Assembly: GCA_964424875.1 (NCBI GenBank)
Contig: CAYRKK010000002.1
Coordinates: forward strand, 1 to 42,215
DNA: 42,215 nucleotides
Direction: 5' to 3'
Origin: Candidatus Woesearchaeota archaeon
GTDB lineage: Archaea > Nanobdellota > Nanobdellia > Pacearchaeales > GW2011-AR1
In this document: positions 4,432 to 40,950 of the stretch, one piece after another
Layout: every line of letters starts with the position of its first letter
How positions within the stretch are numbered: the first letter of the stretch is position 1
Notes under the pieces: model-generated
What the model was told of the DNA's origin: nothing
Databases searched by the model: none
Seen by the model: only the letters and a program-made list of their open reading frames with translations
Position numbers and translations under genes: made by a program

Positions 4432-4435
4432 ATAA

Positions 4436-5703: not shown

Positions 5704-5753
5704 ATATTGCGTTAGTGTTTAATTTTGTGTTAGACCAGAATATATGTCCAGAG

Positions 5754-5922
5754 GTAAACCAAAATTAGTTTTTATAAAAATTCAAGAAAGCAAACTTAAC
5801 CTAAATCTCTTTATCCTCAATACTTTGTAATTACTCTTTAAGCTACTTATCTGCAGAGCGAGAAATGTTTATAAGATAATAATTAGTGAAACAATTTAGG
5901 TTAGCAAAGCTTCCCAAATTAT
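5754..5922 (+). repeat. intergenic repeat family A, copy A2
   Basis: Aligns with A1 and A3. The hairpin arms are aatttagg (5893..5900) and cccaaatt (5913..5920). Confidence 0.8.
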
Positions 5923-10807: not shown

Positions 10808-11681
10808 ATGGTACCTCTTAGCATTAATCTCTGCATTTTTTTCAGCAGTAGCTGCAATATTTGAAAAAAAAGTTTTATTTAAAGAAAAAGCATTAGGATT
10901 CTCAACCCTATTTGCACTTTTCAACTTAATCTTAGCAATACCCTTTTTCTTTTTTATTAATTTTACACTAGTCACTTCATCAGGCCTTTTTGTTTTAATG
11001 AGTAAATCTCTTTTTGAAGCAGGAGCATTTCTTTGTGTAATGCAGGGAATTAAAAATCTTGAGATTAGTGAAGCTCTTCCTTTATTAGTCCTTACACCAG
11101 GCTTAGTTGCATTAGGAGCATTTATTTTTTTAGCAGAAACCCTGACTTTTCTTCAAATCACAGGAATTTTTTTATTAATGATTGGAACTTATACTTTACA
11201 AATAAAAACTAAAGAAAAACAAAAATTACTCGACCCTATCAAAGCTTTTTTTAAAACAAAAGCATATTACTACATTATAGCTGCTTTAATTTTATTCACA
11301 ACAACCTCAATACTTGACAAAGCTATTTTAAAAAACTTCAAACTCCCTTTAAATGCTTTTATGGGTTTTCAGCATCTTTTCCTGGCAATTATTTTCATTA
11401 TCTTTATAATCTCAACAAAAAAAACCCATCAACTAAAATCTGCAATTAAATTTTCTTGGATATTAATTCTAACAATCTCAATCTTCACAATAGTTTACAG
11501 ATACACCCAGCTTTCAGCAGTAAAAATTGCACCTGTTGCATTAGTTCTTTCATTAAAAAGAATTTCAGTTTTCTTCGCAGTTTTAATAGGTGGAAAACTT
11601 TTCCAAGAACATAATTTACTAATCAGAACTTTAGCAACAGCAATTATGATTGCAGGTGCTGTGTTAGTTATTGTTTTTTAG
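10800..11681 (+). CDS. EamA/DMT-family transporter
   Basis: About 10 predicted TM helices in two similar halves and 293 aa, a size and pattern typical of EamA proteins. Confidence 0.7.
   Translation: MIEWYLLALISAFFSAVAAIFEKKVLFKEKALGFSTLFALFNLILAIPFFFFINFTLVTSSGLFVLMSKSLFEAGAFLCVMQGIKNLEISEALPLLVLTPGLVALGAFIFLAETLTFLQITGIFLLMIGTYTLQIKTKEKQKLLDPIKAFFKTKAYYYIIAALILFTTTSILDKAILKNFKLPLNAFMGFQHLFLAIIFIIFIISTKKTHQLKSAIKFSWILILTISIFTIVYRYTQLSAVKIAPVALVLSLKRISVFFAVLIGGKLFQEHNLLIRTLATAIMIAGAVLVIVF
11651..11681 (+). repeat. direct repeat DR-L (live 3' end of the EamA gene), partner of 12744..12774
   Basis: tgcaggtgctgtgttagttattgttttttag versus tgcaggagttgggttggttattgttttttaa, 26/31 by eye. Both end in a stop codon in the same frame (AGAVLVIVF* / AGVGLVIVF*). 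Confidence 0.7.
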
Positions 11682-11684
11682 GGT

Positions 11685-11743: not shown

Positions 11744-12682
11744 ATGTATATTGAAAAAAGAAAAGTAAAAGGCAAAATAAAGTTTTGGCTATCACACTCT
11801 TTTAGAGAAGGTGGAAGAATACATAAGATAAGAAAATTATTAGGTTTAGATTTATCTGAAGAAATTTTGAAAGAGAGGATAGAAAAAGCTAAGCAATTGA
11901 TTTTAGAAGAGATTAATAAATATAAAATAATCAAAGACCCTCTTCATGATAAGATTTCTAAAGAAGAATTGGATTTTATTAAAAAATTGCAAGCAGAGGC
12001 TAATTTAAAAATTATTCATTTATCTGAAACTGAATGGAAGAAATTTTCAGAAATCTTTAGTTATAACACAAATGCTATTGAGGGAAGTGATCTTACAATG
12101 AAAGAAACCAAGACTGTGATAGAAAAAGGTGCTTGGCCAATAGAGAAATCAAAAGAAGATATTGCTGAAGCTCTTGGAGTAAATGAGGCAATTAAATACA
12201 TAAGAAAAATTAAAGAACATATTTCTTTAGATTTAATTAAAGAAATTCATCATATTGTTTTTAAAAATTCTAAGAATTTTGCAGGAGGGTTTAGAAAATT
12301 AGGGCAGGAAGTAGTTGTTAGAACTGGTTCTGGAATTATAGTTCATGAGGGTGCACCTTCATCAAGAGTTATTACTTTACTCAATGAATTAATTAAGTGG
12401 TACAATAAACATAAAACAGAATATCCTGCTATTCTTTTAGCAGCAGTTGTTCACAACCAATTTGAAAATATACATCCTTTTGCTGATGGAAATGGAAGAG
12501 TAGGAAGAATTCTTTTAAATAATATTTTACTTAAAAAAGGATTACCTCCAGTAAATATTGATTTAAAAAATCAAAGAGAGTATTATGAAACCTTGCAAGT
12601 CTATGAAAAACAAAAGAATATAAGGCCAACAATAGAACTTATTTTAAAAGAATATAAAGATTTAAAAAAGATTATTAAGTAA
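11744..12682 (+). CDS. Fic-family protein (class II, with N-terminal inhibitory motif) and a basic N-terminal extension
   Basis: Canonical HPFADGNGRVGR Fic motif. The upstream TNAIEG fits the (S/T)xxxE(G/N) inhibitory helix motif. Confidence 0.9.
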   Translation: MYIEKRKVKGKIKFWLSHSFREGGRIHKIRKLLGLDLSEEILKERIEKAKQLILEEINKYKIIKDPLHDKISKEELDFIKKLQAEANLKIIHLSETEWKKFSEIFSYNTNAIEGSDLTMKETKTVIEKGAWPIEKSKEDIAEALGVNEAIKYIRKIKEHISLDLIKEIHHIVFKNSKNFAGGFRKLGQEVVVRTGSGIIVHEGAPSSRVITLLNELIKWYNKHKTEYPAILLAAVVHNQFENIHPFADGNGRVGRILLNNILLKKGLPPVNIDLKNQREYYETLQVYEKQKNIRPTIELILKEYKDLKKIIK

Positions 12683-12728: not shown

Positions 12729-12743
12729 AAGATTATTACAATC

Positions 12744-12774
12744 TGCAGGAGTTGGGTTGGTTATTGTTTTTTAA
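12744..12774 (+). pseudogene. direct repeat DR-R: relic copy of the EamA C-terminal codons plus stop
   Basis: See DR-L. It has no upstream ORF continuity with a transporter gene, so it reads as a displaced gene end. Confidence 0.6.
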
Positions 12775-12894
12775 ATGTTTGTTGATACCTCTGCCGAGCA
12801 AGAAACCATTATGGCATAATCATGGGCTTTTTATTTGATTATTAATTTAAAGAATATTAACAAGTATTTATATTTTTAAATGAATAGTAAAATC

Positions 12895-13317
12895 CTATTC
12901 TGGGATATTTTTTAATGTTTCGGAATAAGATACCCATTGATCAAACAAACAGAATAGTCCAAGGGAATCAAAAGAACTATCCATATTTTTGGTTGTATAC
13001 TTCAATGGTTCTGTTTTAGATAAATCCAGGAGTTTTCCAGATTGTCCTTCTAATTCCAACCAGGTTCCTTTTGACCCATTAAGAGTTATTTGTCTTACAA
13101 AAGCAGTATTCTCATGAAACATGTATGGTGAATTGCCAGAATATCTGAAACGCTTAATAATACCTGCGCCCAGCTCGTTCATTCTACATTGCATTTCAGT
13201 GGTTAAAATTACTTCCAACATTTCTCCAGCAAACTGTCTGCTAAGAAGAATTTCAAAATCATGATGTGGTTGATAAAGATGTGTTGGCTGCCAAATAATA
13301 TTATCATTAGGGTACAT
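12895..13317 (-). CDS. orphan hypothetical protein (140 aa) with non-K/I/N-biased composition
   Basis: Clean ATG-to-stop ORF flanked by >200-nt non-coding regions. No motif recognised. Confidence 0.5.
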   Translation of the reverse strand: MYPNDNIIWQPTHLYQPHHDFEILLSRQFAGEMLEVILTTEMQCRMNELGAGIIKRFRYSGNSPYMFHENTAFVRQITLNGSKGTWLELEGQSGKLLDLSKTEPLKYTTKNMDSSFDSLGLFCLFDQWVSYSETLKNIPE

Positions 13318-13550
13318 AACTAAGTAGAAAAATAAGTATTTAATAATATATTTGTGTTGAGAGGATTTATTTTACTTAACAATATATTCTCCCTAAAAAA
13401 TGAACTAAACAGTGGGATGCCCCTACAGAGCAAGAATAATATTTGTCCACTTATTAGGGGAATAAAATTATGAAGAATATTGTCTTTATCTTCAATCATC
13501 TCTTTTATTTTTATAAACTCTCAAACACACTTAACTATAAAAAATCTTTC

Positions 13551-16500
13551 CTAAAAACTGATGTCTCTTGAATCAGAATTCCCAGCATCATCTCTAATAA
13601 TTAATTGATAATTTGTATACTTCTCTCTTAACTTAAATTTCTTTTCACATTTTCCATATCTTAATCTACTGCATAATCTCTTTTCTTTAGTTTTTCCACG
13701 ATAATCATAACTCAATACAACTTTATCAAAATTCATTTCAGTTATAGACATATCAAAATAAACATAATCATCATATCTTCCAGTTCCCATTTCCCAAAAA
13801 TCATCAGGATTATTTAATACTGGAGAAGTCATATCAACATCAACTTCTCTTTTTTTTGATTCATCTTTATTTCCTGCAATATCTTCTAATTCAAACCAAT
13901 ATTCTATTTTCTGATTATCAAAGTCAGTTAGATTAACCCAAACCTTACAAGAATGTTTACCTCTAATTTCACTACAATCCTTTTCAATATCCAATTCCTG
14001 AGTCCTTATACTATTACCATAATATAATGTTAGATTTTCAGGATTATCTTCTTTAAATTCAACATAAAAGTTTCCATCTGAAAATCCTCTTGTTGGACTT
14101 GTCTTAGAAATTCTAGGGTCTTTTGAGTCTACTAAAAACGAAACACTTTCTTCATCTATAGTAACATCTTCAACAATCGCTTTAAAAGTAAGTTTATAGG
14201 TTCCATCTGAAAAAGATACTTTCCGATTGTATTCATCACAATTTCTACATAATCTTTTTTCTCTTAATCTTCCTCTAGAATCAAAATAAGTATAAACTAT
14301 TTCATCTACTTCTTCTGTTGTTTCAAGATTTAGTAATATTCTTCTGTTATCAAAGAGGTCTAAGATTGGGGAATTAATGATTAAATTTGTTTGATTATTT
14401 TCCTGAGTTCCACAATTTAAAATTGCCCGATATTCATAAATAGTTTGATTTTGAGAACCTTGGCAAGAATTTGAATCATATTGTGTTAAAAATCTTGATT
14501 GATTCATTAGATTATTAGATAAACATGAAATATTTTGCCAGTCACTCCATGATGTGTTAATAAGATTTGGAATGCATAAGTTTAATACCATTATTGAAGT
14601 TTGCATTGTGGCTATATCAAAGTGAAGATTTTGGGAATCTGGAACATTTGGAATTATTACTCTATATTCTCCAATAGGCAAAGTATAATAAGAATCAAGT
14701 TGGTTTGAATTTTTATTAAAATGATAATAATTCTTTGAATGAGGGTTTCTATTAAGATTGTATATTGCTTGCGTTGAAATCTTTTGTATCTGTAAATCTA
14801 AATTAGAACTAGGATTCCAAATATTTCCATTGTCAACAACTTTAATCTGAACAGAGCCTTCTGAATATTTATTGAAAAAAGACTTACTATATCCAGTTTC
14901 AGGATTATAATAAGAATAAGAATTAGAAGCTAAAACACCATCTGATTTATCATTTAAGAAATCTAAAATGATTTGAGAGTATTCATCTAATCGGGATACC
15001 TCTGTAGCATGATTATACCCATTTATTATAGATAAAGGGATGTTTTGATTTAATAAGCTTGAGCTTGATATTGAAACTAAACAATCATATTCTTCAGAAT
15101 CTGATTCTTTATGCCCAAAATTATCTGTAAGAGAACATAATATAGCTCCCTTATCAAATTCTATTACATCACCCCAATTTAGTCTTTCACTGTTTCCAAT
15201 AATTACATAGTTTTTAGTAGGCAAATTTTTATCTCCTAAATCAAATATCAAATCACTACCTAATGCCATCTGTTTATAAATTGGAGAATTAGAAGCTCCA
15301 GAATATCCAATTCTCCAGTCTTCAAAATTAGAATAATCATCAAAAAATAATGAACCTATTCCAGAGATAATCCAATCCTCACTGATCCCATTAGAAGCCC
15401 CACTTCCATGACTAGGTGATGCTAATAAAATTAAATGATTTACATCATTTTTATAATTATAACTAGAAATATTTTGAACATAACTTCTTGAAACTAATCC
15501 CCCCATACTATGAGCAATAACGTCAAACTTTTGTGAACTTCCATAATAATGATTTTTTAAATAAAGAGTTGAGTCACCTAAAAGTGCCCCACTCATAGGT
15601 ATGTCGTCCTCTCCAGAATAATAAAATTCCCAAGCATCATATCCTTTATTTTGAAATTGTTCTTGAGTTTCTTCTTCATTCCAATATCCTGATTCACCAT
15701 GTTTTCCATGAATAAAGATTATTGGTTTTTGATTTCTAATAACTTTGGGAACATCTAAAAAAGAGATCATATAATCTGCATAGTTATTATTTATACTTTC
15801 AGCACTTTGAACTGAGAACTTTTGTTGTTGATCTTTAATAAATTGTATTTTAGTTTCAATTTTATAAAGATTTGATGAATTTATTTCTTTTAATGGTTCA
15901 TCATTATATCCTAAGTACATTACAGGATTATTAGATGCTTTTTCCTTTAATTCAAATTCAAGAGTATTATTATATTCATTAAGATTAACCTGAACAAGTT
16001 TTGAATTTAATTTAGAATCTTCCGTATCAATTAAAGTTTCATTATTTATTTTAAGAAGAAGATAATCTGATACATTAAATAATATTTTATAATCTCCAGA
16101 ATTTTCTACTTGAAGATAACCTTTCCAATTTAATGAGATCATTTCTTGACTAGGCTCACTACTTGATGCTGATAATGTTTTTGAGGAAGAGAGTATTGTA
16201 GTTGAATCAAGCTCAGGAAAATAATTTCTTTTCCATGCAGGCTTATCTTGATGTATTCTTACTATTTGGTTTACCCAGTCTTCTGCATTATTAAAATTAT
16301 TTTTATTTGAAAAGTGATTTGTCCATTTCCCTATAATTTCATTGTTATCTATTGCATAAATCGCATAAATTTGGTAATCTACAAACAATGTTGGATTATT
16401 CCACCAAGCAATATATCTTTCTGGATTAAATTTGAAGTTCCCATTAGAATCTGTATAAACATCAAAGTAGTCTACTATGTCATTTTCTACTAAATCCACA

Positions 16501-17885
16501 TCTTCAACATACACCCTTAATTTTAAATTGCTGTAAACATTTTCTGAGAATGTTTGTCCTTGTTGAGATACTTGATAGACTTTTCCCTTGACAGCAGGAT
16601 TACAATTTTTCTGAGGGTCATTCCAATTTTCATACTCATAACAGCACCCCTCATTTTCTGTATCAATTATAGGGGTATTTCCATCACAAACTAGATTTGA
16701 AGTACATTGAGAACTACTATCACAGTCCCAACCATTATATCCAAAGAGTGTGTCTAAATTATTTGATGTAGCTGACTTTGAATTGACTGTTGCTTTAAAA
16801 CAATATTCTAAATTTCCAATTAAATCGTCGCCATTAGCAACAACCCAATTAATTAATGCGAAATTATTATTTATTGTAGAATAGAATGAACCAATAGAAT
16901 TTCCACTACATATAGAAGTAACCATATCATCTTCTATAATATCAAATTTAACAGAATTACCGTTTGAGATATCTTGAGTCTGAATGTTTAATGAGACTGT
17001 GTCTCCAGTATTTGCCGAGGTCGGACTCCAATAGATAGATGTTATTGAAGGATTGGTTATTTTTTGACAGCTATTTGTTCCAGTATTCCATTTTTCACCA
17101 ACATTACAACATCCACATTCCAACCCCATTAAACAAATATACCCGTCATAATCAACACAGTCAAAATTAGATGAACATTCAGAATCGTAATCACAGTCAT
17201 ATTCTCCATAATTACACCCTCCTTTTCTTTGTCCCTTATAATTACAATAATCACTATGCCCATTATAAAGAGAAGATCCATCATAGCAATAACAATCTCC
17301 CCAACCTGTGCACGATGCCCAACCTAGATAACATGAATCTACTAAATTATAACATTCATCCTTATCGCAATTATTAGTCCATCCTACTCCACACAAACTA
17401 CATAAAGAACTAGAAGGAGCAAGTACACTAAAACTACTAAATTTTTTAGATAAAATTTTAACATTACTAAAATAAGTAGAAGAATAATAATCAAAAATAG
17501 GATTTTCTAATAGATTAACAGAATTACTCTCTATATGAATCAGGTAGTTATTATTAGTCCATTCTATAAAATCTTTAAACATTAAATAATTTTTATCTTC
17601 AAAAGAGTATATATGCTCTAAATCAATGGGATCTGTTGTTTTGTTTATACTAGCTTTAAGTGCCTCCTCATCACTAAATTCTATAATCCAAACAATTATT
17701 TCTCCTTCTTCTGAAGAATAATAGATCTTAGAATAATTTAAAACTCCCTCAAAAATTTCTGGGAAATCAGGATTATCAATTTGAATTACTTCATAAATAT
17801 CAATTTTACTAGTTTCACCATTGACACCCCCAACCATAAAAATCATTAAAAATATGTATGCCCCTAATACCAACAACTTTTTCAT
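13551..17885 (-). CDS. giant secreted/surface protein: signal peptide, Cys-rich module, PA14-like region, lipase-like alpha/beta-hydrolase domain, C-terminal Ig-like repeats
   Basis: N-terminal MKKLLVLGAYIFLMIFMVGGVNG. Dense Cys cluster at about aa 160-275. NWKGYLQVENSGDYKILFNVSDYLLLKINN is PA14-like. IFIHGKHG ... DVIAHSMGGLVSRSY is a GxSxG nucleophile elbow as in class 2 / PGAP1-like lipases (near nt 15490..15530). Repeated ...KEKRLC... modules at the C-terminus. Confidence 0.8.
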   Translation of the reverse strand: MKKLLVLGAYIFLMIFMVGGVNGETSKIDIYEVIQIDNPDFPEIFEGVLNYSKIYYSSEEGEIIVWIIEFSDEEALKASINKTTDPIDLEHIYSFEDKNYLMFKDFIEWTNNNYLIHIESNSVNLLENPIFDYYSSTYFSNVKILSKKFSSFSVLAPSSSLCSLCGVGWTNNCDKDECYNLVDSCYLGWASCTGWGDCYCYDGSSLYNGHSDYCNYKGQRKGGCNYGEYDCDYDSECSSNFDCVDYDGYICLMGLECGCCNVGEKWNTGTNSCQKITNPSITSIYWSPTSANTGDTVSLNIQTQDISNGNSVKFDIIEDDMVTSICSGNSIGSFYSTINNNFALINWVVANGDDLIGNLEYCFKATVNSKSATSNNLDTLFGYNGWDCDSSSQCTSNLVCDGNTPIIDTENEGCCYEYENWNDPQKNCNPAVKGKVYQVSQQGQTFSENVYSNLKLRVYVEDVDLVENDIVDYFDVYTDSNGNFKFNPERYIAWWNNPTLFVDYQIYAIYAIDNNEIIGKWTNHFSNKNNFNNAEDWVNQIVRIHQDKPAWKRNYFPELDSTTILSSSKTLSASSSEPSQEMISLNWKGYLQVENSGDYKILFNVSDYLLLKINNETLIDTEDSKLNSKLVQVNLNEYNNTLEFELKEKASNNPVMYLGYNDEPLKEINSSNLYKIETKIQFIKDQQQKFSVQSAESINNNYADYMISFLDVPKVIRNQKPIIFIHGKHGESGYWNEEETQEQFQNKGYDAWEFYYSGEDDIPMSGALLGDSTLYLKNHYYGSSQKFDVIAHSMGGLVSRSYVQNISSYNYKNDVNHLILLASPSHGSGASNGISEDWIISGIGSLFFDDYSNFEDWRIGYSGASNSPIYKQMALGSDLIFDLGDKNLPTKNYVIIGNSERLNWGDVIEFDKGAILCSLTDNFGHKESDSEEYDCLVSISSSSLLNQNIPLSIINGYNHATEVSRLDEYSQIILDFLNDKSDGVLASNSYSYYNPETGYSKSFFNKYSEGSVQIKVVDNGNIWNPSSNLDLQIQKISTQAIYNLNRNPHSKNYYHFNKNSNQLDSYYTLPIGEYRVIIPNVPDSQNLHFDIATMQTSIMVLNLCIPNLINTSWSDWQNISCLSNNLMNQSRFLTQYDSNSCQGSQNQTIYEYRAILNCGTQENNQTNLIINSPILDLFDNRRILLNLETTEEVDEIVYTYFDSRGRLREKRLCRNCDEYNRKVSFSDGTYKLTFKAIVEDVTIDEESVSFLVDSKDPRISKTSPTRGFSDGNFYVEFKEDNPENLTLYYGNSIRTQELDIEKDCSEIRGKHSCKVWVNLTDFDNQKIEYWFELEDIAGNKDESKKREVDVDMTSPVLNNPDDFWEMGTGRYDDYVYFDMSITEMNFDKVVLSYDYRGKTKEKRLCSRLRYGKCEKKFKLREKYTNYQLIIRDDAGNSDSRDISF

Positions 17886-18031
17886 ATAAATACCACAAAA
17901 TCAATATATATTAAACTATCGACAATAAAGTCATCAGCTAATCGTGGTAAAAAAGAATCAATCCTCAATAACCCTACCCAACTTTTCTTTATGTTCTTCA
18001 ATATCTTTCTTTGCATCTGCAAAGATTTCAT
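17882..18031 (-). CDS. possible 49-aa ORF translationally coupled (ATGA overlap) to the giant protein gene
   Basis: My own translation is MKSLQMQRKILKNIKKSWVGLLRIDSFLPRLADDFIVDSLIYIDFVVFI*. A GAGGT lies upstream. The stop overlaps the giant gene ATG. It is below the ORF-track length cutoff. Confidence 0.3.
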   Translation of the reverse strand: MKSLQMQRKILKNIKKSWVGLLRIDSFLPRLADDFIVDSLIYIDFVVFI

Positions 18032-18052
18032 CTTGTTCTTCCCTACCTCTTT

Positions 18053-18139
18053 TTATAATATTTCTCTCCCAACAACCTCAACACTTCTCTTCTTTTTATC
18101 AAACCAAACTCGCCCACCAAACTTCAACTCCTTTGCTTC
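18053..18139 (-). pseudogene. relic duplicate of the C-terminal ~28 codons of the HydA-like gene, lying just downstream of MFS copy 1
   Basis: Reads EAKELKFGGRVWFDKKKRSVEVVGREIL* with no start codon. Nucleotide blocks 18068..18092 and 18117..18130 match 19372..19396 (24/25) and 19400..19413 (14/14). Confidence 0.7.
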
Positions 18140-18149
18140 ATACTTTCAC

Positions 18150-19331
18150 TTATTGTTTTTTAGCCCTCAAAAACAAAAACAAAACAGGAATAATCAACAT
18201 AACCAAGGCACCAATTCTAAATCCAATATTAATATTATAAATATCTGATGAAAATCCAACTAAAGGAACAAAAATAGCAACCCCTAAACCTCTCATCAGA
18301 TTATAACCAGAAATAACAGTAGCACGAGTACTTGAATCTGTTTCTAAATGTAACAAATGTTCTGTTGCAGGTCTTCCAATTCCATAAAAAAATTGTTTAA
18401 TTAATAAAAAAATAATTGCTATTAAAGGAAAAACAAATGTTGCAAATAAATAAAACAAACTATAACCAAACCCTCCCATTATAATTGTTTTTTTATCTCC
18501 TAATTTTTCAGAAACTTCATGAGAAAAATAATGTCCTAAAGAAGATACTGCAAAACTTATTGCAAATATATAACCAAAATAAATTATTGGAATTTCATAA
18601 AACTGAAAAAATATTGGTTTTAAATAATGTAAAGAATCTCCTATTCCAATTAAAATAAGAGCACTGAACAAGATTATTAAAACCTGAGAATTTTTAATAA
18701 TAACTCCTAAAGATTTAAACATATGTTTAAAAACATTTTTATGAGTTTCTTTTTCATATTTTGGTTCTACTAACTGAAATGAAAGAAAAGTTGCAATAGA
18801 CATTGGAATAAGACTCATAATAACAGGTAATGATAAAGAAATAGATGCTAAATACCCTCCAACAACAGCACCAATACTAGCACCAATTGGCCATAATGCA
18901 TATTTAGTTCCAATAATTTTTTTAAAATATTTTTCCTTGCCTTCTTGCTTTAATGTATCATAAATTAAAGCACTATCTGCCCCACTAAACATACTTCTAC
19001 CAAATGCATTAATAATAGCATATAAAACAAACATTATCATTATATTCCCAATAGCTAAAAAAACAAAACTTAAAAGAATCACAAATCCAGAAATAATTAT
19101 TGATTTTTTTCTTCCAAGCAAATCAGCAATAGCACCAGTTGGATATTCAAATAAAACAATAGCAATAGATTCAATAGAAATTATTAATGCCACATTTGTC
19201 AGTGTAAATAAACTCTCCTCAATATATAAAGCAAAAATAGGCAGGAAAAATAACATACCTCCAAAAATAGACATAATATAAAAATAAAAAATATTCTTAG
19301 ATTTAATTCCATAAGTATTAAAGAGTTTCAT
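18150..19331 (-). CDS. MFS transporter, copy 1
   Basis: About 12 TM helices and a GAIADLLGRKKS loop motif. Start moved to MKLFNTYG (ATG at 19331), 1 nt after the upstream gene stop. Paralog of 25300..26487. Confidence 0.85.
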   Translation of the reverse strand: MKLFNTYGIKSKNIFYFYIMSIFGGMLFFLPIFALYIEESLFTLTNVALIISIESIAIVLFEYPTGAIADLLGRKKSIIISGFVILLSFVFLAIGNIMIMFVLYAIINAFGRSMFSGADSALIYDTLKQEGKEKYFKKIIGTKYALWPIGASIGAVVGGYLASISLSLPVIMSLIPMSIATFLSFQLVEPKYEKETHKNVFKHMFKSLGVIIKNSQVLIILFSALILIGIGDSLHYLKPIFFQFYEIPIIYFGYIFAISFAVSSLGHYFSHEVSEKLGDKKTIIMGGFGYSLFYLFATFVFPLIAIIFLLIKQFFYGIGRPATEHLLHLETDSSTRATVISGYNLMRGLGVAIFVPLVGFSSDIYNINIGFRIGALVMLIIPVLFLFLRAKKQ

Positions 19332-19332
19332 T

Positions 19333-20229
19333 TTAAACTCTTCCAATCTCTTTATTTTTTTTCTCACAACTCCCAACAATCTCAACACTTCTCTTCCCCC
19401 CAAACTTCAACTCTCCTGCTTTTTCAATTAAACCTTTCCTCTCCTCAGGAATATCTTCATCTTTTGATTTTTCTAAATAATCTAAAACTTTTTTCTTTTT
19501 AACAGATATGGGAATTTTAGAAGTATGAGGTCCTCCAATACAACCTCCAACACAAAACAAAACATCTAAAAATTTTATTTTAGGGTTTGGATTATCTAGA
19601 AACTTCATAATTTTTTTTATCCCATCAATAATCAAAACCTCTTCTTTTTTTATAACACCTTTTAAATGCGCTGTTTTTGCCAAACCCCCTGACAAAGGAA
19701 ATATTTTAGTATAATCATTATAAAACTTATTAAATAAAACATCTCCCTTTATTTTCTTAATTTTCTTTTTCTTAAAAATTTCTCTCAACTGCTCATAATC
19801 AATAACATAATCAATATATTCAGAATTTTCAGATTCAATTTTTTTAAAATCACAAGGAGAAATAAAAACAGTTTTATGTTGAGGATATTGCTTTTTAGAA
19901 ATCTTAGCAGTTGCAATCATTGGACTATCAACTTTAATTAAATTCTTTTTATACTGAGGATATTTATTGCAAATTGTTTCAACAATTCCAGGACAAGGCG
20001 ATGCAATCACCAACTCCTTTGAATTCTTCAATTTCTTATGATAATCCCTGTTAATCATCTTAGCACCAAAAGTTAATTCAATAGCTTTATCAAATCCCAA
20101 TGCCCGAAGTCTAAATATTATTGACGGATACTCAAACTCAGCAACAAAACTCGGAGCAACAAGAGCAATCATTTTAACACCCTGTTCTAATTCAGAAACG
20201 ATTTTATTAATGTTGTTTTTTTCAAACAT
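19333..20229 (-). CDS. short [FeFe]-hydrogenase H-domain-like protein (Fe_hyd_lg_C-like) without N-terminal ferredoxin domains
   Basis: ASPCPGIV aligns to L1 TSCCPGW, ISPCDFKKIE to L2 MPCxxKxxE, and VLFCVGGCIGGP to L3 MxCxxGCxxGG. Confidence 0.65.
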   Translation of the reverse strand: MFEKNNINKIVSELEQGVKMIALVAPSFVAEFEYPSIIFRLRALGFDKAIELTFGAKMINRDYHKKLKNSKELVIASPCPGIVETICNKYPQYKKNLIKVDSPMIATAKISKKQYPQHKTVFISPCDFKKIESENSEYIDYVIDYEQLREIFKKKKIKKIKGDVLFNKFYNDYTKIFPLSGGLAKTAHLKGVIKKEEVLIIDGIKKIMKFLDNPNPKIKFLDVLFCVGGCIGGPHTSKIPISVKKKKVLDYLEKSKDEDIPEERKGLIEKAGELKFGGKRSVEIVGSCEKKNKEIGRV

Positions 20230-20315
20230 TCTAACACCTTTTTTGCAAATAAAACAAGAATTATTAGTTTTTATATTTTTAGATTTCTTCTTTTTCGAAA
20301 TTTATTAGGGCCTTA

Positions 20316-20456
20316 TCACTTAGTAGGTCCCAATCTTTGAACTTCATTTTCAATCATTTTATCAATATCTTCTGCACTTAAGATATATCTAGGTTTTACC
20401 TTCTTTGCTTCTTTGAACAATTTTTCTAAATCTTTGTTAGAGAGTTTTATTTTCAT
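20316..20456 (-). CDS. possible 46-aa small ORF in the divergent intergenic region
   Basis: My own translation is MKIKLSNKDLEKLFKEAKKVKPRYILSAEDIDKMIENEVQRLGPTK*. ATG start and TGA stop. Below the track cutoff. No motif recognised. Confidence 0.3.
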   Translation of the reverse strand: MKIKLSNKDLEKLFKEAKKVKPRYILSAEDIDKMIENEVQRLGPTK

Positions 20457-20580
20457 CTTGATTATTTATTATAGTGGGGGATACTTATTTAAATTATTTT
20501 TTGTTTAAAATTTTTTACAAATCTTCAAGAAGATAACTTAAATTTCACAAGCCATGTTAATCATTAACAAAAACAAAAGA

Positions 20581-20588
20581 TTTAAATA
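20581..20588 (+). promoter_or_regulatory. candidate TATA box of the HEPN/NTase pair
   Basis: tttaaata is centred about 26 nt upstream of the ATG at 20610. Confidence 0.45.
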
Positions 20589-20609
20589 CTTTTAGTTAAT
20601 CATTAATTT

Positions 20610-21044
20610 ATGGAAGATACAGATGAAAAGTTTTCAGAAGAAGAAAATAAAAAAGAATCAAAAGAATCAAAACCTTTAATAAAAAAAGCAAGAAACTACT
20701 TTATCCTTGGAAAAATTGGAGAATCATTAAAAATGTTCTCAGAATCAGCATCTAATTATTTTAAATCTCTTTCAGCAGTAAATGATTTTGTTCTAAGCAA
20801 AATAAACCTTGAGCCAAAAGATCATGGGCAAAGATTTTCAATGTTAAAAGAGCACTTTCCTGAATTTTATAAAATAACTGATTCATTATTTACTGTGTAT
20901 AGAAAAACTTACACCTCTGAATTAACTAAAGAAGAATTATCAAGATTAAGAGAAAAAATAAAGGAGGCTTTTCAAAATGCAAAAATCAGAATCCCAACTC
21001 TTGAAGAGATTAAAGAGCAAGCTGAAATATTATCTAAAAAATAA
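20610..21044 (+). CDS. HEPN-like helical protein paired with a nucleotidyltransferase
   Basis: All-helical 144-aa ORF directly upstream of, and overlapping, an NTase gene. The assignment rests mainly on the pairing, which is common in archaea. No clean R-x4-6-H motif was seen. Confidence 0.45.
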   Translation: MEDTDEKFSEEENKKESKESKPLIKKARNYFILGKIGESLKMFSESASNYFKSLSAVNDFVLSKINLEPKDHGQRFSMLKEHFPEFYKITDSLFTVYRKTYTSELTKEELSRLREKIKEAFQNAKIRIPTLEEIKEQAEILSKK

Positions 21045-21558
21045 AAATATAATAGATATAGTTTTAATAGGCTCTTTTTTAAAAGACAAAGAAAAACCTA
21101 GAGATATAGATATTATAATTATTTTTACAGAGAAAAATTATAAAATAATTGAAGAACTGGCATTCCAAATAAAAGAGGGCCTGTCAGAGATAGTTAAGAA
21201 CAAAGAAATTCATATAGAACCAATTATTATTCATAATTTATTTAAAGAAAAGATATTCTCAAGTATTCTTCATGAAGGTTTTAGTATTAAAAATAACAAA
21301 TATTTTTCAGAGTTAACAGGTTTTAATGCTTTTTCTCTATTCACCTTTTCATTAAATAATCTTTCAAAAATAGAAAAAGTAAAGTTTTCTCAAGCATTAT
21401 ATGGAAGAAAAAACAATGGACTTCTTTACGAAGAAAAAGGAAAACCTCTTGGCAAAGGTTCTTTTATTGTACCAATTCAAAAACAAGAACTCTTTAAGGA
21501 AATGTTAAATAAATGGAAAGTTAAATATAAATTAAATAGAACTTTAATTAAAGATTAA
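20977..21558 (+). CDS. nucleotidyltransferase-fold protein
   Basis: IVLIGSFLKDKEKPRDIDIIIIF is a GS ... D.D NTase motif. It overlaps the upstream ORF by 68 nt in another frame. Confidence 0.65.
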   Translation: MQKSESQLLKRLKSKLKYYLKNKNIIDIVLIGSFLKDKEKPRDIDIIIIFTEKNYKIIEELAFQIKEGLSEIVKNKEIHIEPIIIHNLFKEKIFSSILHEGFSIKNNKYFSELTGFNAFSLFTFSLNNLSKIEKVKFSQALYGRKNNGLLYEEKGKPLGKGSFIVPIQKQELFKEMLNKWKVKYKLNRTLIKD

Positions 21559-21599
21559 CAAAATCAACATATAATATAATTAAAACCTAAATAAGAAAA

Positions 21600-21800
21600 A
21601 TGAAAAAAAGAAAATTTGAATTAATAAAAAAGTCTGTTCTAAAGAATATGTTCTTAAAGAAAAATATAAAAATAGGAAACAAAGGAATTTCTAAATTTTC
21701 AGAATTCATTCAAAAATTTGCAGAAGATTTAGTAGATAAAGCATTAAGACAAGCAAAACTTTCTGGAAGAAAAATAATAAGAGCTGAAGACATTGAATAA
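21600..21800 (+). CDS. archaeal histone-fold protein
   Basis: 66 aa. The C-terminal half AEDLVDKALRQAKLSGRKIIRAEDIE matches the HMf-type A..A.HAGRKT...DI pattern. Confidence 0.75.
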   Translation: MKKRKFELIKKSVLKNMFLKKNIKIGNKGISKFSEFIQKFAEDLVDKALRQAKLSGRKIIRAEDIE

Positions 21801-21837
21801 ATCCTGATTCTTTTCATTCATTGAGTTTTAAGTTAAA

Positions 21838-22191
21838 TTAATACCTAAAAAGACGATAAAAAGAACGAGGATTAGAAGGTTCTTGATATCTATCTGCAAG
21901 GACTTTTCCGGTCATTTCATTATCCCATCTTACTAAATCAACATGAGGTCCTTCATTGGGAATATCTCTTTGGAAATAGCTTTTAGCAGCAGTTTCATCT
22001 AAAAAAAATCTACATCTCACAGGTCCTGTAAAAGTAAATGTTCCCCTATTAACAGAATAACAGGGAAATTTAAAAGGCATTTTTGAATCACCATTAATTC
22101 TCCCAATTGCATCTTCCATAGTTCCTAATGCTCCTGATTTTTTCCATATCTTTTGGAATCTTTCTTCTTTTATTTTACTTGGATTTACCAT
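21838..22191 (-). CDS. orphan hypothetical protein (117 aa), co-directional with and downstream of the oxidoreductase genes
   Basis: Clean ORF. Its composition is richer in G/P/R/F than its neighbours. No motif recognised. Confidence 0.5.
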   Translation of the reverse strand: MVNPSKIKEERFQKIWKKSGALGTMEDAIGRINGDSKMPFKFPCYSVNRGTFTFTGPVRCRFFLDETAAKSYFQRDIPNEGPHVDLVRWDNEMTGKVLADRYQEPSNPRSFYRLFRY

Positions 22192-22287
22192 AAATATTTA
22201 CAAAAACCACCCTTTATAAATATTTCTATCCTTTACTACTTTATAGATACAACTTAAATTTCTAAAATAAAAACTATTAATTAGATA

Positions 22288-23127
22288 TCATCTTAAATTT
22301 TTCCACCCAACCTTCCTCTTCTTCAAATCAGCAAGCTGAGGCCACTCTTCATCTAAACTTAATTTCTTTTCTTCATAAATCACACCAATAGGAATCTTGC
22401 CATTTTTCATATTATAATTCCATTCATCAGCCAACTTCTCTGCTTTCACCTTATCTTTATTATCAGAAATCTTATACATTTTATCATCTGTTTTATTTGC
22501 ATCTAAATTAAAAATCAAACAATCCTGAATTACTTCTACAAAACTAAATCCTTTATGTTTTATTGCTTTTTCTAAAATTAAAGCAGTTCCTGCAATATCT
22601 TTTGCATCAGCTCGGGCAATAAAACCTCCTCCTGAAGCTAATGCAATTTTAATTGGATTTAAAGGTCTATTAAATTCACCAAGAGGTTCTGCTTTTGTTT
22701 TAAATCCTTGTTGAGAAGTAGGTGTTGCCTGCCCTGTAGTTAAACTAAAACTTTGATTATCATGAACAACTAAAGTCATGTCTGGATTAAATCTAAATGC
22801 ATGAATAAAATGAGAAATGCCTTCTGAATAATTTGCACCATCACCTATAAAACTTAATACTTTTAAATTTGGATTTCCAAGTGTAATTCCTAATCCAGTA
22901 GTTAATGCTCTGCCATGCAATCCATAAATCCCACTTAAATTAAGATAATCAAATATTTTTGCATGACATCCTATATCTGTAGTCATAGCAAAATCCTCAT
23001 GTTTATATCCTTCAGAAATTAATTTTGCAATTGCCCTCTTCACACTTTCAAGTATAAAATGATTTGGACATCCAGGACACCACGTGTTCTCATTCTTTGT
23101 TCCTAAATTATTTTTTATTTCTTTCAT
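22288..23127 (-). CDS. 2-oxoacid:ferredoxin oxidoreductase, beta (TPP-binding) subunit
   Basis: CPGCPNH near the N-terminus and a GDGANYSEG ... DNQSFSLTTGQ TPP-binding block. Confidence 0.9.
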   Translation of the reverse strand: MKEIKNNLGTKNENTWCPGCPNHFILESVKRAIAKLISEGYKHEDFAMTTDIGCHAKIFDYLNLSGIYGLHGRALTTGLGITLGNPNLKVLSFIGDGANYSEGISHFIHAFRFNPDMTLVVHDNQSFSLTTGQATPTSQQGFKTKAEPLGEFNRPLNPIKIALASGGGFIARADAKDIAGTALILEKAIKHKGFSFVEVIQDCLIFNLDANKTDDKMYKISDNKDKVKAEKLADEWNYNMKNGKIPIGVIYEEKKLSLDEEWPQLADLKKRKVGWKNLR

Positions 23128-24677
23128 ATTCTCTCAATCTCCTCCTTTAACTCATCTGAATAAAAAGGTCTTGAATCATATTTTAAAATCCTCTTCTCAA
23201 TCTTAATTCCTGTTTTCTCTCTAATTAATCTACCTAATTGTCCTGTTAAATTATTCTCAACTAAAATAACCTCCCCCCCTAATTTCAAAACTTTTTCAAT
23301 CTCTTTTTTAATTTCATTAGATAAAGGTTTCATATACAAAACTTGTAAAAATTTATAATCTCCCTTGCTGTTTTTAATAGAACCATCAATTGCATCTAAA
23401 GCATCTAAAATAACAGTTTTAGTTGAACCCCATCCAATAATTAAATTCTTAGCTTTTTCAGAACCATAAATTTTAATCATCTCAAATTTTGAACATTCAT
23501 TTTTTATCTGTTCATACTTTTCCAAACGAGCATCAGCATTTTTAGAAGTTAAAACAGCATCCTCTGTTGTATTTCCAAATTTATCATGTTCATATGATGA
23601 TGCTTTTACAATTCCTTCACCAGGAACTTTTCTTTTAACATCAATTTTTAAAATTTTATTAGCCTGCTTATCAGAACTAAACTCACTTTCAGCTAAATGC
23701 TTGTCACTTAATATCACAGATAAACATCCAAATTTTTCAGATAAACAAAATCCTTCATTTGTTTTTTCAATACATTCAATTGGATCTCCAGGCGCAATAA
23801 CTACTCGAGGAAACTCTCCATGTCCTCCTCTAAGAGCAATATCTAAATCTCCCTGAGTTGTATAAGTTGGAACTCCTGTTCCAGGTCCAGGACGAGAAGC
23901 TAAATAAACAACAAGAGGAATTTCTGTGATTCCCTGCAAACTCAATCCCTCTGTCATTAAATCATAACCTCCTCCAGAACTTCCAATCATCACCTTAGCT
24001 CCAGCAAATGAAGCACCCAATCCAGCATTTACAACAGAAATTTCATTTTCAGGTTGAAATACCATAAAGCCATTTTCAATTTGCTTTCCAGCAAGTTCAT
24101 GCATTACACCTGTTGCAGGAGTCATTGGATATGCTAAATATAAATCAATTTTAGAATTAACAGCACCTTGAGAAACAGCTTGCGTCCCAGTCATAATAGA
24201 AATCTTATTATTTAATTTCTTCAATTCAAACTTTTTCTCCTGACTTTCAAAACCTTTTTCAGTAGCAGCATTTGCCTCTTTATTATGAAACTGATTTTCA
24301 ACTTCATCAATTAAAACCTGCTTATCAATTCCTAATATTTTAATTAAACATCCAGCAAGAGCAATATTCAAATTCCTTCCCAAATCCTTAAACTCATCAC
24401 TTTTAATAACTATTCCATCTTTTTTCAATTCATTTTCATGCAAACCAATAGTTTTCTCATCCATTGCAACAACAACATCTAACTTACTTTCAATACTCCC
24501 AATTCTTTCATCACTAACACTAAGAACATTAAAATTATGCCCTCCTCTAATCAGCGAAGGATAATCTCTATAATTAAAAGTAAAATAACCAAGTTTAACT
24601 AAAACTTTTGAAACAATCTCAGATACTTTGTTAATACCTTGTCCTGCTTTTCCACCAATTAAAATATTAAGTCGCAT
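23124..24677 (-). CDS. 2-oxoacid:ferredoxin oxidoreductase, fused gamma-alpha subunit
   Basis: The N-terminal ILIGGKAGQGINK block is gamma-domain-like, followed by the alpha-domain block MTGTQAVSQGAV ... AYPMTPATG. ATGA-type overlap with the beta gene. Confidence 0.88.
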   Translation of the reverse strand: MRLNILIGGKAGQGINKVSEIVSKVLVKLGYFTFNYRDYPSLIRGGHNFNVLSVSDERIGSIESKLDVVVAMDEKTIGLHENELKKDGIVIKSDEFKDLGRNLNIALAGCLIKILGIDKQVLIDEVENQFHNKEANAATEKGFESQEKKFELKKLNNKISIMTGTQAVSQGAVNSKIDLYLAYPMTPATGVMHELAGKQIENGFMVFQPENEISVVNAGLGASFAGAKVMIGSSGGGYDLMTEGLSLQGITEIPLVVYLASRPGPGTGVPTYTTQGDLDIALRGGHGEFPRVVIAPGDPIECIEKTNEGFCLSEKFGCLSVILSDKHLAESEFSSDKQANKILKIDVKRKVPGEGIVKASSYEHDKFGNTTEDAVLTSKNADARLEKYEQIKNECSKFEMIKIYGSEKAKNLIIGWGSTKTVILDALDAIDGSIKNSKGDYKFLQVLYMKPLSNEIKKEIEKVLKLGGEVILVENNLTGQLGRLIREKTGIKIEKRILKYDSRPFYSDELKEEIERI

Positions 24678-24742
24678 TTACTTTTCCTCATTTTGATTAT
24701 TAAGAAAATAAAGCCTTCTTTTTAAACTTTATTATCATTTTC

Positions 24743-24952
24743 TCAAACTCTCTCCTCAATAATCCTTGAAACAGATTTCCCAGTTTTCTTACTCATCACC
24801 CTTAATTTCTCAATTGTTTCAACTGACAGAGTTATATCTATTCTTTTTCTTTGAAAAGAAAGTTCATGAGTCTTATCATAATTTTCAAGAGCTTCAAATA
24901 CCTTTTTATATTTCTTCAATATTTTATTTATTTTTTTCTTACCTAATGCCAT
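24743..24952 (-). CDS. ribbon-helix-helix (CopG-like) small protein, probable Doc partner
   Basis: The C-terminal RIDITLSVETIEKLRVMSKKTGKSVSRIIEERV fits a strand-helix-helix pattern. It overlaps the Doc ORF by 14 nt. Confidence 0.6.
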   Translation of the reverse strand: MALGKKKINKILKKYKKVFEALENYDKTHELSFQRKRIDITLSVETIEKLRVMSKKTGKSVSRIIEERV

Positions 24953-25280
24953 TTTTCAATCTCCATTCAATTTGTCTTATATTTGTTATATTATTGCTTG
25001 CAATTGAAATAGAATGATGCAATAATAAATCTCTATCAACTGATTTTTTATTTTCTTCAGCAAAATCAAGAGCAAAAAACATCGCTGTCCTCTTATTCCC
25101 ATCACTAAAAGGATGATCAACTAAAATTGCCCTCCACAAATAAGCTAATTTCTTATACTCTCCTAATTTCATATTCTCCTGCATTTCTATAGCAAAGTCC
25201 AAACTAGAATCACTTCTTAAATTCCCGCCAAATCCTTGATTTATTCTAAGCAAATCTTCCTTACTAATTTCCATACACAT
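24939..25280 (-). CDS. doc: Doc (death-on-curing) family Fic-fold toxin
   Basis: The HPFSDGNKRTA motif is typical of Doc kinases. Confidence 0.85.
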   Translation of the reverse strand: MCMEISKEDLLRINQGFGGNLRSDSSLDFAIEMQENMKLGEYKKLAYLWRAILVDHPFSDGNKRTAMFFALDFAEENKKSVDRDLLLHHSISIASNNITNIRQIEWRLKNGIR

Positions 25281-25299
25281 AAATAGTAGTTAGAAGTAT

Positions 25300-26487
25300 T
25301 TAAATGTTTTGTTTTTTAGATTTTAAAAACAAAAACAAAACAGGAATAATCAACATAATCAAAGCACCAATTCTAAATCCAATATTGATATTATAAATAT
25401 CTGATGAAAATCCAATTAAAGGAACAAAAATAGCAACCCCTAAACCCCTCATTAAATTATAACCAGAAATAACAGTAGCACGAGTACTTGAATCTGTTTC
25501 TAAATGCAATAAATGCTCTGTTGCAGGCCTTCCAATTCCATAAAAAAATTGTTTAATTAATAAAAGAATAATTGCAATTAAAGGAAAAACAAATGTTGCA
25601 AATAAATAAAACAGACTATAACCAAACCCTCCCATTATAATTGTTTTTTTATCTCCTAATTTTTCAGAAACTTCATGAGAAAAATAATGTCCTAAAGAAG
25701 ATACTGCAAAACTTATTGCAAATATATAACCAAAATAAATTATTGGAATTTCATAAAACTGAAAAAATATTGGTTTTAAATAATGTAAAGAATCTCCTAT
25801 TCCAATTAAAATAAGAGCACTGAACAAGATTATTAAAACCTGAGAATTTTTAATAATAACTCCTAAAGATTTAAACATATGTTTAAAAACATTTTTATGA
25901 GTTTCTTTTTCATATTTTGGTTCTACTAACTGAAATGAAAGAAAAGTTGCAATAGACATTGGAATAAGACTCATAATAACAGGTAATGATAAAGAAATAG
26001 ATGCTAAATACCCTCCAACAACAGCACCAATACTAGCACCAATTGGCCATAATGCATATTTAGTTCCAATAATTTTTTTAAAATATTTTTCCTTGCCTTC
26101 TTGCTTTAATGTATCATAAATTAAAGCACTATCTGCCCCACTAAACATACTTCTACCAAATGCATTAATAATAGCATATAAAACAAACATTATCATTATA
26201 TTCCCAATAGCTAAAAAAACAAAACTTAAAAGAATCACAAATCCAGAAATAATTATTGATTTTTTTCTTCCAAGCAAATCAGCAATAGCACCAGTTGGAT
26301 ATTCAAATAAAACAATAGCAATAGATTCAATAGAAATTATTAATGCCACATTTGTCAGTGTAAATAAACTCTCCTCAATATATAAAGCAAAAATAGGCAG
26401 GAAAAATAACATACCTCCAAAAATAGACATAATATAAAAATAAAAAATATTCTTAGATTTAATTCCATAAGTATTAAAGAGTTTCAT
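25300..26487 (-). CDS. MFS transporter, copy 2
   Basis: Protein identical to copy 1 over about the first 311 aa and divergent only at the C-terminus. Confidence 0.85.
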   Translation of the reverse strand: MKLFNTYGIKSKNIFYFYIMSIFGGMLFFLPIFALYIEESLFTLTNVALIISIESIAIVLFEYPTGAIADLLGRKKSIIISGFVILLSFVFLAIGNIMIMFVLYAIINAFGRSMFSGADSALIYDTLKQEGKEKYFKKIIGTKYALWPIGASIGAVVGGYLASISLSLPVIMSLIPMSIATFLSFQLVEPKYEKETHKNVFKHMFKSLGVIIKNSQVLIILFSALILIGIGDSLHYLKPIFFQFYEIPIIYFGYIFAISFAVSSLGHYFSHEVSEKLGDKKTIIMGGFGYSLFYLFATFVFPLIAIILLLIKQFFYGIGRPATEHLLHLETDSSTRATVISGYNLMRGLGVAIFVPLIGFSSDIYNINIGFRIGALIMLIIPVLFLFLKSKKQNI

Positions 26488-26583
26488 TTTCCACCTTTTT
26501 TAGAACTAATAACTAAGAGTTTTTAAAACTATCAAAATTCTTATTTACTCTTTGATTTCCTTTTAATAAACATAACAATAATC

Positions 26584-26591
26584 AATATAAA
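26584..26591 (+). promoter_or_regulatory. candidate TATA box of ORF 26613..27044
   Basis: aatataaa is centred about 25 nt upstream of the ATG. Confidence 0.4.
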
Positions 26592-26612
26592 CTATTTTTT
26601 CGATTTAGATTA

Positions 26613-27044
26613 ATGTCAGAAGTTTTAAAATTAATTTTAGAGAATAATGCTGGAGAAATTATTTATATTCATCCCTTGCCTAAAGAGAGATTTAAAGAAA
26701 AGGCATGGAGGACAACCTTAGAATTAAATGGAGAATGGGCAAGAAGAGCATTAGGATTGGAATTTGAAAGTGTAAGTCAAGCATTTAGAGAAAGAGGGTA
26801 TGAGGAAACAATTGGTTGGCCATCTGATTGGAAACATTTTTCTGATATTTATGTCTTTGCCCCTAATGAAGGAGGACTAGTAAGAGGAATAATTCAGTTA
26901 GCTCGCGATTATAATATGGATCCAAGAATAGAAGATATTGTTCCTTATTATGACACAAATATAGATAAAAAAGAACAACAAGATTTTTTAATAGAAAAAG
27001 TTGTGGAATATATTGAAGTTGTTAATAGTTTATTAGAGTCTTAA
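26613..27044 (+). CDS. orphan hypothetical protein (143 aa)
   Basis: Clean ORF with an acidic, W-containing composition unlike its neighbours. Convergent with acs, with a 4-nt gap. Confidence 0.5.
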   Translation: MSEVLKLILENNAGEIIYIHPLPKERFKEKAWRTTLELNGEWARRALGLEFESVSQAFRERGYEETIGWPSDWKHFSDIYVFAPNEGGLVRGIIQLARDYNMDPRIEDIVPYYDTNIDKKEQQDFLIEKVVEYIEVVNSLLES

Positions 27045-27048
27045 TTAA

Positions 27049-40836: not shown

Positions 40837-40950
40837 TTTTCCTCCTAAATAATTTTATTATTTTGAATAATATAAATTATATTTTTAAGAATTTAAAGCT
40901 TTGCACTATAAAAATTTCATCACATGTGCTCCCTACTGACATGGGCCGTA

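Follow-up and report, generated by a model that had tools for sequence, protein, structure and literature searches.

We analysed a 42,215-nucleotide (nt) stretch of DNA from a Candidatus Woesearchaeota archaeon (contig CAYRKK010000002.1, positions 1 to 42,215; hereafter the window), in which a gene for a transporter of the major facilitator superfamily (MFS) stands beside the 3' end of a hydrogenase-like (HydA-like) gene. This transporter gene, MFS-A, has a close paralogue, MFS-B, in the same window, and it lies between the live end of the HydA-like gene and a displaced, decaying copy of that end, relic 1. We consider it probable (roughly 0.75) that the arrangement arose by a segmental duplication, in which MFS-B gave rise to MFS-A beside the HydA-like end after the split from the nearest relative found, a metagenome contig (L027, JGI 3300033143). 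The features on which this reading rests are as follows.

19333..20229, minus strand: live HydA-like gene, 298 amino acids (aa), with the Fe_hyd_lg_C domain only (open reading frame (ORF) and Pfam search)
19320..19430, minus strand: live copy of the duplicated segment, comprising the last ~97 nt of the HydA-like gene, a 1-nt spacer and the first ~12 nt of MFS-A (local alignment)
18021..18152, minus strand: relic 1, apparently the displaced older HydA-like 3' end (local alignment; the tail fits the family consensus)
18150..19331, minus strand: MFS-A, the putative derived copy, 393 aa, repeat block 18153-19334, without a ribosome-binding site of its own
25300..26487, minus strand: MFS-B, the putative parental copy, 395 aa, repeat block 25309-26490; its context was confirmed by an independent assembly (L029)
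19335..26490, minus strand: the 7,156-nt segment from the MFS-B start to the HydA-like end, a candidate tandem-duplication unit (repeat spacing and gene content)

Two direct repeats and their ages

The shorter of the two repeats had been noticed in the original prediction, according to which two blocks of the HydA-like gene end recur beyond the MFS stop codon. Both recurrences were reproduced. The 25-mer at 19372-19396 was found again at 18068-18092 with one mismatch and had no further match in the window at up to three mismatches, none being expected from shuffled sequence; the 14-mer at 19400-19413 recurred exactly at 18117-18130, where 0.02 matches were expected. The extra 21-nt block of the downstream copy was also present, the spacer between the two blocks being 24 nt there versus 3 nt in the live copy. 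Subsequently, the two ends were aligned pairwise, as had been proposed. A MAFFT pairwise alignment of the tails was poor, and Smith-Waterman alignment with shuffles was used in its place. On the coding (minus) strand, the gapped local alignment scored 72, far over the shuffle background (23.9 +/- 3.8, maximum 48 in 500 shuffles), with 90 of 103 columns identical (87%) and several indels, including those of 21 nt and 5 nt. Repeat finding in the window gave the pairs 18066-18092/19370-19396 (26/27) and 18113-18138/19396-19421 (85%). The repeat thus extends over ~110-130 nt (18021-18152 versus 19320-19430), which is somewhat longer than first described, and the Jukes-Cantor distance between relic and live tail was 0.14 plus indels. 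Furthermore, the homology continues past the HydA-like stop into ATGAAA(C)TCTTT in both copies; in the live copy the MFS gene begins with this sequence, and in the relic copy a 49-codon ORF does.

The two copies differ in coding capacity. The live tail reads IEKAGELKFGG followed by KRSVEIVGSCEKKNKEIGRV and the stop codon, and the MFS start codon (19331) lies 1 nt beyond that stop (19333-19335). In relic 1, positions 18053-18139 translate as EAKELKFGGRVWFDKKKRSVEVVGREIL and a stop, followed by what was once post-stop DNA, which reaches ATGAAATCTTT (18021-18031); both translations had been given correctly in the original prediction. The relic has no start codon, as had been stated, and its frame contains an in-frame TGA three codons before EAKELKF. 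The MFS gene therefore does lie between a live, in-frame HydA-like 3' end and a second copy that is start-less and decaying.

Comparison with the C-termini of homologues upheld the pairing of a functional and a relic copy and added a qualification: it is the relic, rather than the live end, that holds the ancestral-type tail. A tail motif of the form Phe-x(2-4)-Trp-aromatic was present in 18 of the 20 closest HydA-like homologues, whose tails include KAKGLKFGGKVWFDK (P0010) and GLKFSGAVWFDKIKK (P0006), each followed by the stop. It was also present in P0121, the protein encoded on L027, which is the only close relative and belongs to the same 90% cluster (tail ELKFGGKGWWIGRKVKADLKNNNHHSSCNM and stop). 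The relic carries the family-typical end ELKFGGRVWFDK, reading GGRVWFDK, to be compared with GLKFGGKVWFDK before the stop in P0010 and with GGKGWW in P0121. In direct comparison, the relic reads ELKFGGRVWFDKK, whereas the live copy continues from ELKFGG directly into KRSVEIVG without those seven codons and so has no aromatic motif. Because the motif shared by these homologues and P0121 is retained in the relic and lost from the live tail, the relic appears on this comparison to keep the older form, and the live tail to have been remodelled after the duplication. The segment KRSVEVVG has two candidate counterparts in the L027 tail, KGWWIGR and IGRKVKAD.

The longer repeat is the transporter gene itself. 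The bracketing of MFS-A by the live and relic ends stood as described; its paralogue 7.16 kb upstream had gone unseen, and with it an unexplained insertion becomes an intragenomic duplication. Comparison of the window with itself revealed MFS-A and MFS-B as a gap-free direct repeat of 1182 nt, 98.5% identical and 7,156 nt apart, and as the only long repeat in the window. The identity runs from 3 nt before the ATG to two codons before the stop of MFS-B, and the flanks beyond are unrelated. MFS-B is preceded by an intergenic region of its own with a GGTGG ribosome-binding site 4-8 nt upstream of the ATG, has no HydA-like flanks and ends in a native tail, LFLFLKSKKQNI (KSKKQNI) and stop; homologues end in LFMFLKKEKQILTS and LFLFLKEKR. 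MFS-A ends in RAKKQ and a stop, lacking the last two codons of MFS-B; it abuts the HydA-like stop at one end and the duplicate of the HydA-like tail at the other. Since only MFS-B has its own intergenic region, the GGTGG site and a family-like C-terminus, MFS-B looks like the parent and MFS-A like the derived copy. The 393-aa protein matched PF07690 (MFS_1) at 9.7e-32 (110.7 bits against a gathering score of 33.4), and its best NCBIfam matches were efflux-type models far below their cut-offs, which indicates distant similarity. A metagenome scan for relatives of the transporter found 5 loci only, at <=62% identity; in the one with usable flanks that was inspected (L015), the neighbouring ORFs were not HydA-sized.

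The differences between MFS-A and MFS-B are confined to one part of the repeat. The first 876 nt are free of them, and the remaining 306 nt contain 18 (P ~3e-11 under a uniform spread). In the diverged 306 nt, 13 differences were synonymous and 5 non-synonymous, giving a synonymous divergence (dS) of 0.22, a non-synonymous divergence (dN) of 0.021 and a dN/dS of 0.1. Because all differences fall in this last part and most are synonymous, the pattern points to purifying selection on both copies and to homogenisation of their 5' part. Four independent assemblies (L001, L005, L028 and L029), which are identical to the window except in the MFS genes, show at least three mosaic haplotypes of A- and B-type sequence within these genes. 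Such mosaics are consistent with repeated gene conversion, and the way in which short-read assemblers phase the copies may have a share in them. The tail distance of 0.14 is similar to the MFS dS of 0.22, and one event can accordingly account for both repeats.

We also observed a cluster of 11 substitutions within 31 nt of the MFS genes (25693-25723 and 18537-18567), which change IGFTLSSF to ISFAVSSL. Both copies in the window carry this patch, unlike the copies in all other, otherwise exactly matching, assemblies. The patch may be a variant in the population or the result of conversion by a diverged source sequence.

The relatives bear on the age of the duplication. L027, a close relative at ~90-93% nt identity, is ~84-93% identical to the window in collinear blocks. 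There the ACS gene adjoins the POR genes, and the order continues from the POR beta gene to the HydA-like gene, a convergent Fic-domain gene and EamA, with no MFS gene at either the A or the B site. An MFS gene after the HydA-like gene was likewise absent in L006, L007 and L020-L026, among which the more distant L023 and L024 keep the order HydA-like gene, convergent gene, EamA and tRNA-deacylase gene. Because neither L027 nor the more distant loci have an MFS gene after the HydA-like gene, the arrangement in the window is, by this comparison, derived. Between the window and L027, the HydA-like gene showed a dS of 0.30, a dN of 0.029 and a dN/dS of ~0.1; the lower dS of the MFS pair fits a duplication after the split from L027.

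Origin of the arrangement and alternative explanations

From these repeats we infer the following order of events. The 7,156-nt segment contains MFS-B, a Fic/RHH pair, the POR alpha-gamma and POR beta genes, a nucleotidyltransferase pair, small ORFs and the HydA-like gene. In a first step, this whole segment would have been duplicated in tandem, the two units being joined at ATGAAA, a sequence shared by the MFS start and the DNA just past the HydA-like stop. In a second step, a deletion of ~5.9 kb in the second unit would have begun at the last two codons of the MFS gene and reached as far as codon ~267 of the HydA-like gene. The product would consist of the HydA-like gene and MFS-A, then a ~100-nt remnant from the end of the second HydA-like gene, then the original downstream DNA, which is the observed order. 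Two copies of the last ~100 nt of the HydA-like gene would thereby have arisen in the same event: the copy in frame with the gene became the live tail, and the copy beyond MFS-A lost its gene body and has been decaying. Later, gene conversion would have homogenised the 5' two-thirds of the MFS copies, the live tail would have lost 21 nt (RVWFDKK) and gained 5 nt, and the relic would have gained substitutions and small indels. Alternatively, a single template switch during replication, leaving at ATGAAA and returning ~100 nt upstream, would yield the same product. The two-step route seems the most economical, and the sequence by itself does not separate it from a template switch. That both tails are followed by ATGAAA(C)TCTTT is expected if the junction formed at the ATGAAA microhomology. 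A copy made through mRNA was considered and dropped, as the repeat block ends two codons before the parental stop and not at a transcript end, and no reverse transcriptase gene is nearby.

Several points weigh against a segmental duplication. The ATGAAA shared by the MFS start and the DNA after the relic stop is only 6 nt long in a window of 28% GC, and we estimate its probability by chance at that position at ~0.6%. The two-step route requires that the deletion began within two codons of the MFS stop, a coincidence that the short intergenic gap between the MFS and Fic genes (~20 nt) eases without removing. No genome was found with the pre-duplication state, namely a HydA-like gene with the tail GGRVWFDKKKRSVEVVGREIL and stop followed by the 49-codon ORF and a gene for a 1444-aa protein, and a search for such an allele with a composite peptide (HydA-like C-terminus plus relic tail) gave no matches. 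The 876-nt identity and the mosaics may be due in part to short-read assemblers collapsing or phasing the repeat. Finally, the live tail equals L027 exactly at IEKAGELKFGG, where the relic has E-AKELKFGG; we attribute the latter to decay of the relic, and it would also be consistent with a live tail imported from a relative.

Such an import is the first of the alternatives. A related strain would have donated a 3' part of the HydA-like gene together with an MFS gene by homology-facilitated illegitimate recombination, homologous within the HydA-like gene and illegitimate just upstream of the resident gene end, so that the live tail would be the donor's and the relic the recipient's. The tails do differ by several indels plus substitutions, and over IEKAGELKFGG the live tail matches L027 and the relic does not. 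Against this, MFS-A is near-identical to a gene in the same genome, and the sole close relative has no MFS gene at all. Moreover, the tail divergence does not exceed the synonymous divergence of the MFS pair and needs no older origin, and every assembly equals the window outside the MFS genes, with no donor-like strain visible. We regard such an import as unlikely.

Site-specific integration of a promoterless MFS cassette carrying a replacement gene 3' end, with the two tails as attL and attR, would produce a similar geometry of live end, cargo and displaced partial copy, and the tail repeat does contain exact runs of 16-17 nt. However, no integrase or recombinase gene lies between or beside the repeats: Pfam searches detected only MFS_1 between them, and the outer ORFs are PA14/lipase-like or domain-less. 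The repeats are diverged (87%, with indels) and have no identical core, their homology continues past the HydA-like stop into the start of the next ORF, and MFS-B has no HydA-like flanks. The cassette explanation is largely refuted and, in our judgement, very improbable.

We next place an assembly artefact, in which a single MFS gene was placed twice or a chimeric join was made over the repeat. In other samples, contigs with the same HydA-like protein end 28-141 nt inside the MFS gene, the two copies show no difference over their 5' 876 nt, and L028 links the HydA-like end to a B-type MFS gene and its Fic neighbour, all of which an artefact could produce. Nevertheless, the MFS 3' ends differ, with 18 fixed differences in the window, and all four junctions occur in independent assemblies: that of MFS-B with its upstream DNA and that of MFS-B with the Fic gene in L029, that of the HydA-like gene with the MFS gene in L001-L005 and L028, and that of MFS-A, the relic and the 1444-aa gene in L005. 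An artefact is thus still less credible than a cassette.

The weakest alternative, that 18053-18139 belongs to an independent small gene or regulatory element merely resembling the HydA-like tail, can draw on the 49-codon ORF directly after it, which has an ATGA overlap with the 1444-aa gene, but we give it hardly any weight: the segment is not a conserved small gene, since its start-less frame with an upstream in-frame stop encodes a peptide that matches HydA-like homologues at their C-termini and has their conserved GG-x-VWF-DK motif, nothing similar follows the HydA-like gene in nine relatives, and it has no Pfam or Rfam match.

The HydA-like gene and other features of the locus

A third fragment of the HydA-like tail, relic 2, was found 5.3 kb beyond relic 1. 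The features of this region are as follows.

12736..12777, minus strand: relic 2, the last 14 codons (HLKNNNQPNSCRL and stop) of an ancestral, L027-type HydA-like tail (L027 alignment, score 215)
12778..18020, minus strand: block absent from L027 that separates relic 1 from relic 2 (L027 alignment, ORFs and Pfam)
17882-18031, minus strand: 49-codon ORF that begins right after relic 1, its stop overlapping the start of the 1444-aa gene (ATGA)
13551-17885, minus strand: secreted PA14/lipase-like protein, 1444 aa (Pfam)

Homology between L027 and the window ends at 19393 in the live tail and resumes at 12777, 40 nt before the HydA-like stop of L027. From there, 12736-12777 reads HLKNNNQPNSCRL and stop versus DLKNNNHHSSCNM and stop in L027, and the same downstream DNA follows in both; relic 2 adjoins the ancestral downstream neighbour, the convergent Fic-domain gene (11744-12682). 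The alignment with relic 2 thus indicates that ~6.6 kb were inserted into the HydA-like tail relative to L027, and the presence of a third tail fragment indicates that this tail was disrupted more than once. The ~6.6-kb insert comprises the new tail, MFS-A, relic 1, the 49-codon ORF, the 1444-aa protein gene and two small domain-less ORFs, of 59 aa and 140 aa, which also lie in block 12778..18020. A domain search found no recombinase-like gene among its ORFs.

Relative to L027, two further lineage-specific inserts were observed in the ACS-POR-HydA block. The one between the ACS and POR genes (24729-27053) holds a 143-aa ORF, MFS-B and a toxin-antitoxin-like pair of Fic (113 aa) and RHH (69 aa) proteins; the one between the POR beta and HydA-like genes (20230-22300) holds a 117-aa ORF, a nucleotidyltransferase gene (Polbeta) with a 144-aa partner, and a 46-aa ORF.

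As for the HydA-like protein itself, Pfam assigned residues 19-234 to PF02906 (Fe_hyd_lg_C, H-domain) at 1.6e-37. The best NCBIfam match was TIGR04105 (group B1 [FeFe] hydrogenase), at 145.8 bits, below the cut-off of 450 and confined to model positions 206-459, the C-terminal half. Hydrogenases in the PDB showed weak similarity (1e-15 or weaker) over part of the protein. Because the NCBIfam match is far under its cut-off and the resemblance to solved hydrogenases is weak, 'HydA-like' seems the proper level of naming. The named homologues come from metagenome-assembled genomes labelled 'archaeon', Candidatus Pacearchaeota and Candidatus Woesearchaeota. Around residues 76-80 the protein has ASPCP where the aligned solved [FeFe] hydrogenase has TSCCP, with Pro in place of the first Cys, and its remaining cluster cysteines align. 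The first Cys of TSCCP is the proton-relay residue in CpI, and judging from this motif, the HydA-like protein may not be a standard H2-evolving enzyme.

Two contigs connect the ends of the 7,156-nt segment. L001 (ENA ERZ27248922 k141_528858) starts at window position 26490 and ends 141 nt into MFS-A, forming a cycle of 7,156 nt in which the ends overlap by a 141-nt k-mer, and L028 (JGI 3300005645 Ga0077109_1026665) runs from the HydA-like end through a B-type MFS gene into the Fic gene. A tandem intermediate or an excised circle would connect the ends in this way. In both contigs the join falls in the 681 nt that are identical across all assemblies of both MFS copies, and chimeric assembly consequently explains them equally well. 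The segment carries a POR-HydA-like fermentative core and two toxin-antitoxin-like pairs. We doubt that the direct MFS copies make this block excisable or amplifiable and that L001 and L028 represent real molecules, whether a tandem array or a circle; if they do, core energy genes would vary in copy number in a reduced-genome archaeon.

An A-rich 14-mer, CTAAAAAACAATAA(C), occurs on the minus strand at 18150-18163 (MFS-A end), 12763-12776 (start of relic 2), 25308-25321 (MFS-B end) and 11667-11683 (EamA 3' end). It had 9 matches at <=3 mismatches versus 2.25 expected. Its use as a recombination site, or as evidence that MFS-A is the parent, was dropped: MFS homologues have native Lys-rich tails, and by our estimate chance alone would produce ~130 exact 13-mer repeats in the window. 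The recurrence is probably chance in low-complexity Lys/Asn codons and possibly microhomology used in the rearrangements.

Elsewhere in the window, an intergenic repeat family of ~185 nt has three direct copies (4433-4611, 5742-5920 and 40949-41129) at 80-82% identity with long invariant stretches, and another repeat, a pair of inverted 119-nt copies (4313-4431 and 33280-33397), has 89% identity. The intergenic repeats had no match in Rfam; candidate explanations are a small RNA, a miniature mobile element, and a promoter or leader that the copies have in common.

Significance and comparison with known systems

The locus offers a clean, datable case of paralogue gain in a small, gene-dense DPANN-type archaeal genome, in which the putative parent and its derived copy can be seen together with the scar at the junction, signs of later gene conversion and a close relative that lacks the duplication. 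The HydA-like tail appears as a repeated breakpoint with three nested tail fragments. MFS-A and the HydA-like gene are probably transcribed together; in relatives, the HydA-like gene directly follows the POR genes. The repeat also explains why short-read assemblies break at this locus. For annotation, the 417-aa MFS ORF extended to a TTG start and the relic should not be called genes. The structure is a familiar duplication scar from an ordinary rearrangement and represents no new mechanism or system; its value lies in how fully its history can be read.

Three known systems can be compared with it. Integrative elements that target the 3' ends of tRNA or protein genes leave partial duplications, attL and attR. 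As in those elements, the inserted DNA here is flanked by the live end of a gene and its displaced relic; unlike them, this locus has no integrase and no identical core, and its cargo duplicates a resident gene, the other copy of which has no flanks of this kind. Dispersed paralogues may also evolve in concert through gene conversion, the classic case being tufA and tufB in Salmonella. The MFS data differ from that case in coming from short-read metagenome assemblies, in which the phasing of the copies is uncertain; they resemble it in that a tract of perfect identity stands beside one with ~22% synonymous divergence, and in that the mosaic boundaries vary among assemblies of the same population.

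The third comparison is the closest to the origin proposed here. Tandem duplication followed by partial deletion, and microhomology-mediated template switching of the kind termed fork stalling and template switching (FoSTeS) or microhomology-mediated break-induced replication (MMBIR), are routes of prokaryotic rearrangement. Only the end product is seen here, L028 and the circular-looking L001 being possible intermediates or assemblies across the repeat. In common with these routes, the window contains two direct copies in one replicon, a novel junction, possibly formed at microhomology of a few bases, no mobile-element genes and, as the scar of the junction, a partial gene duplicate.

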